Source: a virus (Duplodnaviria; Heunggongvirae; Uroviricota; Caudoviricetes). Taken from it: a DNA stretch of 64,000 bases. The notes beneath the pieces are model-generated. The model was not told where the DNA came from. It did not search any database and was given only the letters and a program-made list of their open reading frames with translations. The stretch lies in IMG/VR virus record IMGVR_UViG_3300035182_001709. One strand, written 5' to 3'. Of the stretch, positions 23,881 to 29,243 are shown one piece after another (position 1 is the stretch's first letter; every line of letters starts with the position of its first letter). The translations under genes were made by a program, and so were the position numbers.

Positions 23881-24735
23881 TCACTCCTCACCGTTTAGTT
23901 CGGTACTCAACTTGGTGTAAAGCATGAAGCGAGTCACTGTCTCATCATTGACCACATCGAGGGTCTCGGAGATCAGGCGCTCTCGGGCCTCGTTCAGCTT
24001 TTCATTGACGTACTTGTTAGCGTTTGCTGCAGTGTACTCGTCCATTCGTTGCAACAGGTCAGACTTGATCTCTGCCAGTTTCTTGTGAATGACGGTCGGA
24101 TCATCGTGAGCGGCCGAAAAGACATACGCCTTGACGAGTGACTTCTGATCATCGTTCAGGACACCAGCGTACTTCTCGTTCAACTTCTTTGTCATGACCT
24201 TCATCAACAGGCGAGCAGTTCCGTTAGACTCTTCACTGATGACATGATCATCAGCCTCTGGTCGTTCAGACACCAACCACTGGACCAACTGGTCCTCGTA
24301 GGTCGCCATCCTCGACAAGTCCTTGTCGGTCGATCGCCAATCATTGAGCAGCGTCTGCACGGTGGCATACATCCTGTACTCATTGATCTGTTGATCATAG
24401 AAGTTGTCATCTTTGATCGAGTAGTTGATGTGCTTGATGAGCAGCGACTTCTCGCGGTCCAGAGTCTGGATGTCGTGAGATCGGGCCGCCGAGCGCGCCT
24501 CGTTCAGGATGTTAGCAGCGACTGCCTCTGACGTCACCTTCGTCTTAATCAACGAATTGACGAGCCTAAACTCTCGGTACAGCTCAGAACCAGGCTTGAA
24601 GTGCTTTCGGAGGATCTTCAACGCCACGGCAGACTTCTTCTGGTTGCCCTCGACGAGGGCGGTCGAAATGGTGCGGACAAGGAACTCGTAGAGTAGTCCA
24701 GCATTACGCTTCTTGTTGTGGCCCTTGCTGCTCAT
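23881..24735 (-). CDS. Hypothetical head-module protein between portal and protease
   Basis: 284 aa helical, HNKKRNAGLLYEFL; 4-nt overlap with the portal gene. Confidence 0.7.
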   Translation of the reverse strand: MSSKGHNKKRNAGLLYEFLVRTISTALVEGNQKKSAVALKILRKHFKPGSELYREFRLVNSLIKTKVTSEAVAANILNEARSAARSHDIQTLDREKSLLIKHINYSIKDDNFYDQQINEYRMYATVQTLLNDWRSTDKDLSRMATYEDQLVQWLVSERPEADDHVISEESNGTARLLMKVMTKKLNEKYAGVLNDDQKSLVKAYVFSAAHDDPTVIHKKLAEIKSDLLQRMDEYTAANANKYVNEKLNEARERLISETLDVVNDETVTRFMLYTKLSTELNGEE

Positions 24736-27700
24736 GACTCGTCATCCTCGTTGTCATCATCGATGATAAGTACATCGCCTTCGTTAATGGCGCTGCCTGT
24801 CAGACCCGGTTCGATCGACTCATCAATCTCGATGTTGATCTCTTGGTCCTCTTTTATCAAACCATTCTTCGATCCGCGCTCACCAGGGAACTTCTTTTCC
24901 CAACTTAGCAACGCAGCGACCACGTCGCCAGGAAGCCGCTGCTGACGTGCGACGCTTTCGCCGAATGGGTCGCTGACGACAGACTTCAAGAAGTCGGTAT
25001 CGTAAGGATCCTCCATCGCTCGATTGTCAGTCGAAGTCATCTTCCTGAAGTCAGGCATGTGCGTCTTAGACGGTCCGTGCGTCAAGTGACGGCTACGGTT
25101 GTAGAGCACGCGGTCAAGCTGCTTCTGAGCCTTGACTGGAATCTCGACGTCCTTCATGGCGCCGACGCGGAGCCCAAATGTCTCATCGTCATCATTGTCG
25201 TCAGCTGACGTCAGGAGCTGAACACCAGGCGTGGTCTCCTCTTCTGGTTCCTCACCTGCGTTTTCCTCGGGAGGCGTCTCTTCTCCGCCTGCGGGTTCCT
25301 CACCGCCTCCACCTTCATCGCCGCCGCCAAAGAGGTCTTCGCCTCCCCCGCCGCCATCCCCTCCAGCACCCGCGCCGGACTCGATGGCTGCGTCAACGAC
25401 CTTATCTTTCATGCGATTCTTGTCGATCTGCTTGCACTCCTGATCGTTGAGGCCCCAGATCTCCTTGCGGACAAAGTCCTTATCAATGAAGCCTTCAGGG
25501 GCCGAGCCGCCGATCTCAAACTTGGCACGCCACAGTTCTAGCTTCTGTTGCTGTGCGACAGTCGACGGGTTGGACAGATGCAACGTAAAGTTCTGCAGAT
25601 CATCACCGTCATACCCGTGTGCATAGAGGTGGATGATCGCCAGCTTGTTGAGCTCGGCAAGGATCGTCTTCTGAATGACAGCAATGGTACGCGAGAACCT
25701 GATGTCCTCCTGCGCCAACGTGGCCTTGCTGCTAAGCATCTCATCGTAACCCAAGTAGGCGCGTGGGATCTTCAGAGCAGCAAACAGCTTCTTCTGAATG
25801 TAGGCCACGTCCTCGACGGCGGCAGTGTTCTGGCCTCCCGCGAGGGTTTCAATGCGAGTTCCAGACTCTTGGCCACGAACTGGGATGAAGTAGTCCTCAT
25901 CGACGCTCTGAAACGCAAATATTAGTCCTACACCACCACCACCACCATGAGGTGATTGTGCACCTTTCGCAGCATTTTCACCACCCACGGCAAGATTGTG
26001 CCATCGATCAACGGTAACACTGTACACATCTTCAGTTGTATCGATGAGCTCAACAGAAATGACGACGTGGTTGTTCGCACCGTCAGAAGCAACAACGCCG
26101 GTGTCAACGTTGTTGACGTACTGACGACCCAAGGCCGCAGGATGGTGCGCAGCCCAAACTGCCTTCCAGTTAAGGTAATCGGCGATGATGAACTTACCGA
26201 CGACGTTTTTATGCAGCGATTTCGCGAGATCGTGAGCCAGATGAGCGTTCGTTGCTGCGTAGAGCTTCATGAACGTTACGTCGGACTTCAACCGTCTCAG
26301 GAACGCATCGAGCCCCTCGAACCTACGAAGCGATCTGATGACGTTGATAACGTAGACCTGGCACTCAGGCGACCAAACATAGCGCATGTTCTGTCGGGCA
26401 CGCTCCCTTCGTTCAGGGTCAGCCCACATCGTAGACATCGCTTCAGAACGTTTGACGTAATGCTCAGCGTTCGTTATCAACTGCAGGTTGCCAGTTGAGT
26501 TGTTGAGCTTGTCAAAGTTGACGTGATGAATTGTCTTTCCCTGCTGTGAGATGTGCCCGTTCCGATAGACCTCGAGCCCGAACGCATGAGCCGCGATCAA
26601 CTCGTGGGTAAAGATGCGTGTTCCGAACGATGGATCGAGCACCTTTTCGTAACAGTGCTTGTCAACTTCAGAAACTTCAGCGCCTGACATCGGTGCATAT
26701 GTAACGTGCAACGGCATCAAGCTGTCGCCCGAACGTAGATCCTTCGCTTTAACGTGAGAACCATCACGAAGCATCATCCTATGTTCAGGTGTGACATTGA
26801 TGACGCCGCCGTCGTCCAGCGTCACCCTGACAAACTGTTTCGTAGTACCTGACTTCCCGGCCCAGATCACCTTGCCGGGTACCAACCTACCCCCCGCTTC
26901 GAGATCAAGGGAATAAGTCTCATGGTCTCGGCGCCCTTCATTCCACTCCTTGACTAGCTCATCGATCCGCAGCATCCTACCATCCAACAATGGTATCTGA
27001 ACGTTCGCTGCGAAGCACAGTGGATTGTACCTGAGGTCCACACGACCAGAAGAGCGATCAATGACCTGATTCGTCCTGAGGTTCTTCCTCTGCTCTTCAA
27101 CATAAAGAGGCACGTCCTGCGCTGGAACGTTGGCAACGTCGATGTAGAAGACGCGGCGTTCAGGTGCCCTGACGACGCGGTACACCAACATTGCATCTTC
27201 GATGAGGATCAACTGACGCCAAATGCGGCGGGCAGGCTCAATGATCGATGACCCGTAAGGCAAGAACATGTCGTTGCCCAAGAGCCGAAAGTGAGTGATC
27301 TCCCAGTTCTCGAGGACTCGATTACCTAGGGTGACCCAGCGATACCTGACCGCAAACGGATCGTCACGATCGTAGTTCTCTTCGCGCTCGATCTCGTTGA
27401 CAGGGATCGGGAACGCTGAGACGACTCCGTACGTTGGAGAAACGTCATTATAGAGGAAGAAGTCGCCGTACTTAACAAGATTGCGCGCCCAGGATCGCAG
27501 GTTGAACTCGGTGTTCAACGTATTGTAGAAAAGGTCCTCGAGCACCTCGCGAATCTTCTCATTGTCCGAGTAAATGTGGAGGACGCGGCCTTTCTCATCC
27601 TGTGCACACGTTTCGTCGGCATAGATGTCAAGAGCAGCCGCGATCTCAGGAGTATTGTGCGAGATCACACTATCGGTGGCAAAGTTCTTGTACCCGTCAA

Positions 27701-29243
27701 CGGTGAGGTCGTAGAGAGGGATCTCACCGACATACTCAACGGAAACTACCTTACAGTTGTTGTAAGTCTCCTGAAAGTCACTAAACTTCTTGAAGCCATT
27801 CTGCGACAACCTGGAGATAATCGTGTTCTTGTTGGCGCCAAGCTTTTCGGCGAGACGAGGCAACGTCACGCTGGGTGTATATGCATCACAGATCTGTTGG
27901 AACGTCAGTGAATTACCGTTCGAACCTCGTGGACGACCGCCCTTTCGGACGCTCTTAATCTGATTGACGGTCACTTCCTCGTCGTGATACCCCATTGTTG
28001 AACGCAACTCTGTCCACGACATCCGGGCGCGGCGGGCCAAAAACTTGTCAAGTACGTTGACAGTGCAACCGAGCTTAATGCACAAAGAACGCTTCGTGTC
28101 ACCAGCAGTCATCGAAGACTTCAATAGCTCGAGGCTCAAGTCCCGTGTCAGTAGACCGGGTCGGTTGTTGATCATAGAATCAGCTTGACCGCCAGCATAT
28201 GCCGCAACAAATTTATTGAACGTTGAGAATCCGTGGGTCGCCAATCGTTCATAGATCAGGTTCCATGTGACATCAAGAGCATTTGCAATCGCCGGCATGC
28301 TGAAACCAACACGTTCAGCAGTCTCTAGGATTCGAGCAAAAGTCACATCCCTGCGAGCGCCAGGAGCATTGTCACGCATCCGAGCTGCATGGTTCTTCTT
28401 GAACTCTTCGATCCACTCACGGTTTTCGGGTGCCCACTTCACCCCGTTGTTGATCGCGGCGTGGTAACTGTCATGGGCAGACTTCGTCATGATCCTGAGA
28501 TTTTCAGGACGATTATCAGTCTTAATGAAGTTGATGTGGTGGACAACCTCATCTTCGTTGAGCTGACGACCGGCAACCCACTCAGCGATCAGTTGGTGCT
28601 CTTTGGTCCAACCGCGGAACCTATCGTCCATCGTGTAGATCCACGAGTAGCCAAGGGTGCCTTCTTTGGCATCAGCAAAGATGTCTTTGCGGTAGAAGGG
28701 CATCATTGCATCGCCGGGTTTCAGGTCCTCAACACGACGGTATGTACCGTCACGAAGCATCAGTCGATGTTCCGGTGATGCAACAATCTCTTTTCCATTA
28801 TCAAATTTGATCTTCCAGGCACTATCGACACAGGTCTGACGAGCCTGTTTACCGAACGCCGGAACGATGCGCTTCAAATTGTGATCGTACGAATAGACAA
28901 TGAAGATGTGATCCGGATTTTTCTCACACTCTTGCGCTAGCTCACCTATAGTCTTGAAACCATCTGAGGTTGCGATCTTAGTGTCAATCGCAAGTGAATA
29001 CTCCATTTCTTGAAAGTCCTGATAGCGCATCAAGCGCTCGCTCAGGTTGTAGGCATTTGCCGTGATGGTCGCGTAGGTCGGCGCCAGCGACTTCTGAAAG
29101 AGCAACGTGCCTGACGACTTAGTCTTGTCAGCGACCGCGATCGTCGTGTCGGCGGTGCGGATCTTCTTCTTGATGACAGGACCACTTCGAAACAGTCGCG
29201 TCAGTCGTCGGAAAAGGCTTTGAGGTGCTTCTTTTTTTGCCAT
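24732..29243 (-). CDS. Portal protein, T4 gp20-like, interrupted by two inteins (about 685 aa spliced)
   Basis: Exteins join as QEMEY|TPEIAAALDIYADE and LRYNPL|SVDEDYFIPVRG; also LIEDAMLVYRVVRAPERRVFYIDV and KKLFAALKIPRAYL. Confidence 0.93.
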   Translation of the reverse strand: MAKKEAPQSLFRRLTRLFRSGPVIKKKIRTADTTIAVADKTKSSGTLLFQKSLAPTYATITANAYNLSERLMRYQDFQEMEYSLAIDTKIATSDGFKTIGELAQECEKNPDHIFIVYSYDHNLKRIVPAFGKQARQTCVDSAWKIKFDNGKEIVASPEHRLMLRDGTYRRVEDLKPGDAMMPFYRKDIFADAKEGTLGYSWIYTMDDRFRGWTKEHQLIAEWVAGRQLNEDEVVHHINFIKTDNRPENLRIMTKSAHDSYHAAINNGVKWAPENREWIEEFKKNHAARMRDNAPGARRDVTFARILETAERVGFSMPAIANALDVTWNLIYERLATHGFSTFNKFVAAYAGGQADSMINNRPGLLTRDLSLELLKSSMTAGDTKRSLCIKLGCTVNVLDKFLARRARMSWTELRSTMGYHDEEVTVNQIKSVRKGGRPRGSNGNSLTFQQICDAYTPSVTLPRLAEKLGANKNTIISRLSQNGFKKFSDFQETYNNCKVVSVEYVGEIPLYDLTVDGYKNFATDSVISHNTPEIAAALDIYADETCAQDEKGRVLHIYSDNEKIREVLEDLFYNTLNTEFNLRSWARNLVKYGDFFLYNDVSPTYGVVSAFPIPVNEIEREENYDRDDPFAVRYRWVTLGNRVLENWEITHFRLLGNDMFLPYGSSIIEPARRIWRQLILIEDAMLVYRVVRAPERRVFYIDVANVPAQDVPLYVEEQRKNLRTNQVIDRSSGRVDLRYNPLCFAANVQIPLLDGRMLRIDELVKEWNEGRRDHETYSLDLEAGGRLVPGKVIWAGKSGTTKQFVRVTLDDGGVINVTPEHRMMLRDGSHVKAKDLRSGDSLMPLHVTYAPMSGAEVSEVDKHCYEKVLDPSFGTRIFTHELIAAHAFGLEVYRNGHISQQGKTIHHVNFDKLNNSTGNLQLITNAEHYVKRSEAMSTMWADPERRERARQNMRYVWSPECQVYVINVIRSLRRFEGLDAFLRRLKSDVTFMKLYAATNAHLAHDLAKSLHKNVVGKFIIADYLNWKAVWAAHHPAALGRQYVNNVDTGVVASDGANNHVVISVELIDTTEDVYSVTVDRWHNLAVGGENAAKGAQSPHGGGGGVGLIFAFQSVDEDYFIPVRGQESGTRIETLAGGQNTAAVEDVAYIQKKLFAALKIPRAYLGYDEMLSSKATLAQEDIRFSRTIAVIQKTILAELNKLAIIHLYAHGYDGDDLQNFTLHLSNPSTVAQQQKLELWRAKFEIGGSAPEGFIDKDFVRKEIWGLNDQECKQIDKNRMKDKVVDAAIESGAGAGGDGGGGGEDLFGGGDEGGGGEEPAGGEETPPEENAGEEPEEETTPGVQLLTSADDNDDDETFGLRVGAMKDVEIPVKAQKQLDRVLYNRSRHLTHGPSKTHMPDFRKMTSTDNRAMEDPYDTDFLKSVVSDPFGESVARQQRLPGDVVAALLSWEKKFPGERGSKNGLIKEDQEINIEIDESIEPGLTGSAINEGDVLIIDDDNEDDES
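25908..27017 (-). mobile_element. Intein 2 in portal (370 aa; Cys1, non-canonical Phe-Gln end, Ser+1) with HNH endonuclease
   Basis: Begins CFAANVQIPLLDG; block B TPEHRMML; HHVNFDKLNNSTGNL; ends VYSVTVDRWHNLAV...GLIFAFQ|S. Confidence 0.88.
27654..28997 (-). mobile_element. Intein 1 in portal (448 aa; Ser1, His-Asn end, Thr+1) with HNH endonuclease
   Basis: Begins SLAIDTKIAT; block B SPEHRLML; HHINFIKTDNRPENL HNH motif; ends YDLTVDGYKNFATDSVISHN|T. Confidence 0.92.

Follow-up and report, generated by a model that had tools for sequence, protein, structure and literature searches.

The T4-like portal gene of an uncultivated phage carries an intein that ends in Phe-Gln. This element, referred to here as intein 2, is most probably a class-1 intein that is active, includes an HNH homing endonuclease and belongs to an old Gln-ended lineage; it would cleave its C-terminal junction by cyclisation of Gln without a penultimate His. 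Intein 2 is defined by firm boundaries, a confidently predicted fold, conserved residues and a well-supported clade; judged from the sequence comparisons, its Phe-Gln end is of ancient origin and shared throughout a lineage of portal inteins in phages, and it reflects neither an error nor a defunct intein. The gene lies in the window, that is, the whole stretch of 64,000 nucleotides that was analysed, and the source record comprises 309,433 bases with a completeness of 91% according to CheckV; it is the assembly of an uncultivated phage, whose viability is assumed.

Portal gene, intein boundaries and predicted fold

As shown in Table 1, two inteins lie inside the portal gene, whose reading frame is matched by the Pfam families Portal_T4 (E 1.5e-61), Intein_splicing (E 1.5e-13; 51.2 bits against a cut-off of 35.8) and HNH_3 (for intein 2, 26.8 bits against a curated cut-off of 24.8). 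The exteins are colinear with the intein-free portals of Microcystis phage Mel-JY01 and Flavobacterium phage immuto, a comparison in which two large insertions are evident, and they also align with the T4 gp20 structures 3ja7 and 6uzc. At portal residues ~1300–1503 (24732–25300, minus strand) there is a Gly/Glu/Asp-rich low-complexity stretch with an acidic C-terminal tail, roughly 150 aa, and both are absent from the Mel-JY01 and immuto portals. Intein 1 has canonical ends and a long helical region and shows no close kinship to intein 2. Meanwhile, portals of related uncultivated phages (P0035, P0036, P0038, P0040, and P0048; 2296–2930 aa) contain three to four inteins per gene, at conserved sites that lie before EMEY, in DIYADE, before CKYGD, at NPL/S (the slash marks a splice junction), and before SKATLAQED.

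Table 1. Positions of the portal gene, its inteins and their motifs in the window, together with the intein of the phage ribonucleotide reductase (RNR)
Feature	Position	Strand	Basis or remark
T4-like (gp20) portal gene, 1503 codons, two inteins inside	24732..29243	minus	ORF and Pfam Portal_T4
Intein 1, aa 83–530, Ser1 ... His-Asn / Thr+1, HNH domain	27654..28997	minus	Intein-free P0047 reads MEY/TPEI
Middle extein, aa 531–742, final RYNPL	27018..27653	minus	Aligns with T4 gp20 residues 261–322 (6uzc numbering)
Intein 2, 370 aa, Cys1 ... Phe369-Gln370	25908..27017	minus	Portal residues 743–1112
Cys1 codon, block A nucleophile	27015..27017	minus	Cys in 14/14 members of the Gln clade
Block B Thr76-Pro-Glu-His79 (TxxH)	26781..26792	minus	Pro77 nearly invariant and His79 invariant, 50 aligned inteins
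HNH homing-endonuclease core, intein residues 153–186	26460..26561	minus	Pfam HNH_3, E 4e-6
Block F DVYSVTVDRWHNLAV: Ser333 (F:4), block-F His340, Asn341, Leu342	25986..26030	minus	Intein alignment
Gly-rich 20-aa segment, tip of the block F/G hairpin	25926..25985	minus	AlphaFold and alignment
Trinucleotide repeat, (CAC)5.7 on the plus strand = (GGT)5 coding, encodes the Gly5 run	25931..25947		Repeat search
Block G LIFAFQ: Phe369 (G:6), Gln370 (G:7, CAG 25908–25910)	25908..25925	minus	Sequence and alignment
C-extein, Ser+1 (AGC, 25905–25907) then VDEDYFIP	24732..25907	minus	Ser = Ser329 of T4 gp20 (6uzc numbering)
RNR locus with its intein, L011:1–2757	G000:C1 ~109,290–112,050, outside the window	minus	Pfam and sequence

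A sequence-only reading of this DNA had proposed a portal intein that lacks the penultimate His and ends in Phe-Gln before Ser, and each of these points is borne out by the present analysis: the intein by the ORF, the Pfam matches and intein-free alleles, the missing His by Phe369 at G:6, and the junction by the alleles described here. At the N-terminal junction, Cys743 of the ORF follows directly after RYNPL; at the C-terminal junction, GLIFAFQ is followed by SVDEDYFIP, with CAG (25910–25908) as the final intein codon and AGC as the +1 codon. The intein-free portals P0014, P0047, P0148, and P0181 read through the same site as RYNPL/S[VI]DEDYFIP, with flanks near-identical to those of intein 2, and the boundaries are therefore exact. 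The spacing from the conserved Asn to the Glu-Asp of the extein matches that of the intein-free portals only if intein 2 runs from Cys to Gln, and the +1 residue, Ser1113, is conserved both in the intein-free portals and in T4 gp20 (Ser329). A 3C-like protease site (Gln/Ser) was also considered and dropped, as no such site is found at the N-terminal junction and the exteins need ligation.

The structure prediction that had been suggested as a check gave a confident intein fold, with a pLDDT of 88.7 for the AlphaFold model built on a 50-sequence alignment. All of the top Foldseek matches of this model in the PDB are inteins, and VIA-align superposes it on the splicing domain of the Mtu RecA intein with a Z score of 19.8 and an rmsd of 1.7 Å over 138/139 residues. 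The superposition covers model residues 1–370 and the whole mini-intein chain from the first to the last residue; because the model superposes end to end on mini-inteins, Cys1 and Gln370 sit where the terminal residues of an intein are normally found. When the last 57 residues of intein 2 were searched against the sequences of the PDB, the only match was a low-complexity chance one. In the intein alignment, block B His79 is invariant among the 50 sequences, and the HNH residues His164 and His165 are nearly invariant.

Intein 2 has the features of class 1, namely the HINT fold, a Cys1 nucleophile, a block B Thr-x-x-His motif, Ser+1, and an in-frame insertion at a conserved host site for which relatives carry intein-free alleles; the typical His at G:6 and Asn at G:7 are absent, their places being taken by Phe369 and Gln370. 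Class 3 inteins (WCT) carry Cys at F:4 and have no N-terminal nucleophile, and intein 2 departs from them with its Cys1 and its Ser at F:4. The same position holds Asn in 12/13 aligned clade members and Cys or Thr in Asn-ended sister inteins.

The sequence-only reading had further noted a poly-Gly insert between blocks F and G. A Gly-rich segment is indeed present, but it has no special link to the unusual chemistry and stands out by its extra length alone, for it lies in a loop that varies in most inteins of the family whatever their end, His-Asn and Lys-Asn enders included. In the AlphaFold model, strands 341–350 and 363–369 form a hairpin, and residues 351–362 are a low-confidence loop (pLDDT ~54 for residues 351–360), which, judging by the HINT topology, probably sits far from the catalytic strand ends. 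Loop lengths are 0 in the P0070 type, 10–12 in most of the Gln clade, 16 in P0002, 20 in intein 2, which has the longest loop in its clade, and >30 in P0038. The Gly5 run can change length by slippage with the frame kept, because it is encoded by a perfect trinucleotide repeat, and the segment is best read as a slippage-prone and tolerated lengthening of a variable hairpin tip.

Gln-ended inteins at the portal site and elsewhere

Portal relatives were gathered with a word-based search and with phmmer run exhaustively (3595 matches, E up to 0.001), and the RYNPL / S-x-DEDYF site of T4-like portals proved to be an intein hot spot in uncultivated phages. Fourteen inteins at the intein 2 site end in Phe-Gln or Trp-Gln followed by Ser, and all of them start with Cys (P0001–P0011, P0013, P0037, and P0058; about 45–55% identical to intein 2). 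When maximum-likelihood trees are built with the last eight residues left out, the [Phe or Trp]-Gln inteins form one clade with SH-aLRT support of 100 (11 members) or 99 (14 members). Paths between clade members amount to ~1 substitution per site, and the terminal Gln has nevertheless been retained across the clade, which argues that it is kept under selection; with Gln in 14/14 members, the end is conserved among relatives and is not a single mutation. Cys1, the block B His, the terminal Gln and Ser+1 are invariant in the 14 diverged relatives, and the block B Thr is nearly so, being replaced by Ser in P0011, so that all 14 contain (Thr/Ser)-x-x-His in block B. The block-F His is missing at its usual position in five members (P0002, P0011, P0013, P0037, and P0058), which makes its role in the third step of splicing doubtful, and by this comparison it may be dispensable in the Gln lineage. 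Sister inteins at the same site end in Lys-Asn, His-Asn, Arg-Asn, and similar pairs. A locus search of viral contigs yielded only two relatives, both distant (33% identity), and a second word-based protein search over the region from block F to the extein yielded only 7 proteins.

About half of the inteins at the intein 2 site start with Pro, have APEH (Ala for Thr) in block B and Cys at F:4 (VYCMTV), and most of these end in Lys-Asn; examples are P0015, P0019, P0041–P0044, P0053, P0055, P0064, P0069, P0076, and P0077, among others. They have no N-terminal nucleophile and a class-3-like look, although the Trp and Thr that canonically complete the WCT triplet are missing.

Gln ends also occur outside the clade. 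Pro1-type inteins ending in Gln are found at the intein 2 site in P0038, P0042, and P0099, separate from the Gln clade; a second portal site, with RYxDF before an initial Cys and a terminal Gln before [S/C]EMEY, carries Gln-ended inteins in P0004, P0048, P0064, P0166, and P0178; and ribonucleotide reductases carry them in P0029 and in the RNR of the present phage itself. The second-site inteins (RYxDF/ ... /[S/C]EMEYTPE, in the N-terminal region of the portal) are of a related HNH type and end in Thr-Gln, Arg-Gln, Lys-Gln, or Phe-Gln, while P0088, a close relative of theirs, has a Lys-Asn end and Phe after the block-F His-Asn. In the RNR of the present phage (Ribonuc_red_lgC, E 6.6e-70), the intein lies at the active-site motif, starts as STNP/CITGETL and ends as IIASEQ/CGEITL, that is, with Glu-Gln before Cys+1; its F:4 residue is Asn and its block-F His-Thr is followed by Leu, features that recall the portal Gln clade. 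On the same contig as this RNR, at G000:C1 76,400–79,150 (L007, L009, and L012–L014; outside the window), there are short ORFs of 164–233 aa with partial intein matches, to an N-terminal-only or a C-terminal-only splicing domain, one of which starts ...HVYDIEVRNHHNFVANDVVVHN/C; they may represent split inteins or the pieces of a fractured gene.

The tree requires 5–6 changes between Asn and Gln, and Gln arose at least 4–6 times within the sampled inteins; a shared Gln is therefore no proof of kinship. Several positions separate the Gln clade from all Asn-ended relatives, among them F:4 (Asn/Ser versus Cys/Thr), Leu342 (versus Phe) and Glu33 (versus Trp), in addition to Ser56-Gly57 and Gly364. 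Across 65 inteins, the residue after the block-F His-Asn is Leu or Val in 23/24 that end in Gln and Phe in 41/41 that end in Asn, and the joint change to Gln and non-Phe is seen repeatedly: at each of the two portal sites, among Pro1-type inteins and in RNR. These sequences suggest that a terminal Gln co-varies with the replacement of Phe by Leu/Val, but as there are only 4–6 independent phylogenetic contrasts (sign test p 0.125–0.25), it is a lead and not a result. The Asn-ended Mtu RecA intein also has Leu after the block-F His-Asn.

Proposed splicing route and alternatives

By the route proposed here, Cys1 would form the thioester with the aid of Thr76 and His79 of block B in the first step, and the N-extein would be transferred to Ser+1 in the second. 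In the third step, Gln370 would cyclise to a glutarimide and cut the intein–extein bond without a penultimate His, probably helped by the block-F His340 and by a pocket that has come to accommodate the longer side chain (Ser/Asn at F:4 and Leu342 for Phe); an O-to-N shift would then give the intact portal. A more far-reaching version of this route is unlikely. It proposes that the [Phe/Trp]-Gln portal inteins cleave their C-terminus with neither of the usual histidines needed, G:6 being always aromatic and F:13 missing in 5/14, by means of a co-adapted pocket that places the Gln, with Asn or Ser at F:4 and Leu or Val replacing Phe after the block-F His-Asn as the named pocket residues. Seen in RNR as well as at two portal sites, such a pocket would amount to a distinct solution reached more than once, and the pace of portal maturation might depend on it.

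It has been reported that native Gln slows splicing in both the Pab and the Mma PolII inteins and that changing Gln to Asn in Pab PolII makes C-terminal cleavage 20-fold faster, whereas in the Chilo iridescent virus (CIV) RNR intein Gln is optimal and splicing is better with it than with Asn (PMC4031507), so that a Gln end does not imply slowness. These reports bear on an unlikely explanation, which takes up the suggestion of the sequence-only reading that conditional chemistry could gate head assembly: the intein would be active as proposed, but its Gln end and its lack of the His would make the third step slow or conditional, and splicing would thereby time or gate the maturation of the portal and the assembly of the head. 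The conservation of the Gln trait in a structural protein needed early in assembly would fit such gating, but it is equally explained by a Gln-adapted pocket; other inteins at the same portal site end in His-Asn, Lys-Asn, and Arg-Asn, which indicates that the site demands no special end, and nothing regulatory was found.

It is very improbable that intein 2 is a decayed element that no longer splices, with either a dead portal gene or a portal that works with a 370-aa insertion. What speaks for decay is the absence of the canonical His and Asn at G:6 and G:7, together with the Ser at F:4 and the extra Gly-rich loop; against it stand the catalytic residues held across the 14 diverged relatives, an open frame, an intact HNH motif, a confidently predicted fold, and the place of the insertion in the conserved portal core, adjoining Ser329 of T4 gp20.

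An assembly or frameshift error masking a true His-Asn end, or a junction that lies elsewhere, both of which the sequence-only reading had itself raised, has next to no probability: a shifted frame in the loop does read Val-His-Asn (25955–25963) and the loop repeat is prone to length errors, but a period-3 repeat cannot shift the frame, relatives without the present loop sequence still end in [Phe/Trp]-Gln, as 13 other diverged inteins do, the intein-free alleles fix the junction, and 5 contigs are recorded as encoding the identical portal protein, a count on which the case for independent assemblies rests. The Val-His-Asn frame was rejected as a hidden end because it continues with His, runs into a stop at 25928–25930 and cannot rejoin the extein. 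An exact-DNA scan of metagenome and viral contigs for the 42-nt junction, from which the phage's own or near-identical records may be excluded, gave 0 matches.

Relation to known inteins

Gln-terminal inteins have been found to splice experimentally in Pab PolII, Mma PolII and CIV RNR; Gln, Asp, and Glu ends are regarded as accepted variants of the same mechanism, with Gln cyclisation by the standard route, and ~5% of functional inteins, such as Ssp DnaE and Ceu ClpP, have no His at G:6 (PMC4031507). The G:6 His is typical rather than obligatory in class-1 inteins. Gln ends and a non-His G:6 are both already documented, and the biological surprise of intein 2 is modest. A literature search found no description of T4-like portal inteins ending in Gln, and the new elements are the co-variation of Gln with Leu/Val, the Gln-ended inteins at a second portal site and a second Gln-ended intein in the RNR of the phage. 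In this essential phage gene, the unusual splice junction is an inherited and selected trait, and portals of this kind should not be marked as broken during automated annotation. In addition, natural Gln-terminal inteins without a penultimate His in mesophilic-looking phages, together with their Asn-ended sisters at the same site, provide a comparative series for the efficiency of Gln cyclisation, which is of interest for intein engineering, as the known PolII examples with Gln are slow and thermophilic.

The closest parallels are the Gln-terminal inteins of PolII from Pyrococcus abyssi and P. horikoshii (PDB 2LCJ and 5BKH), of Methanoculleus marisnigri PolII and of CIV RNR, which share Cys1 and a C-terminal Gln that is presumed to cyclise to a glutarimide. 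The model of intein 2 superposes on the Pab PolII intein with a VIA-align Z score of 15.1, and the same intein (2lcj) is its best sequence match in the PDB, although the match is weak and N-terminal only (E 0.024). Pab PolII has Ser at F:4 (PMC8175363), as does intein 2, and the block-F His is present in both; however, in Pab PolII the penultimate His is retained and the +1 residue is Cys, whereas intein 2 has a penultimate Phe (Phe or Trp in its clade) and Ser+1. The hosts differ as well, a phage portal with an HNH endonuclease in the intein on the one side and a polymerase or RNR on the other, and in sequence intein 2 is only weakly akin to this group. In the inteins without His at G:6, such as Ssp DnaE and Ceu ClpP, this residue is likewise replaced, and by analogy splicing is expected, but those inteins end in Asn; intein 2 combines the loss of the G:6 His with Gln, and some members of its clade also have no block-F His. 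The HNH inteins that further uncultivated phages carry at this portal site (P0015–P0176) share the site, the HNH architecture and the variable F/G loop with intein 2 at 28–39% identity, but their ends are Lys-Asn, His-Asn, or Arg-Asn, their block-F His-Asn is followed by Phe, and many of them are class-3-like, with a Pro start and Cys at F:4.
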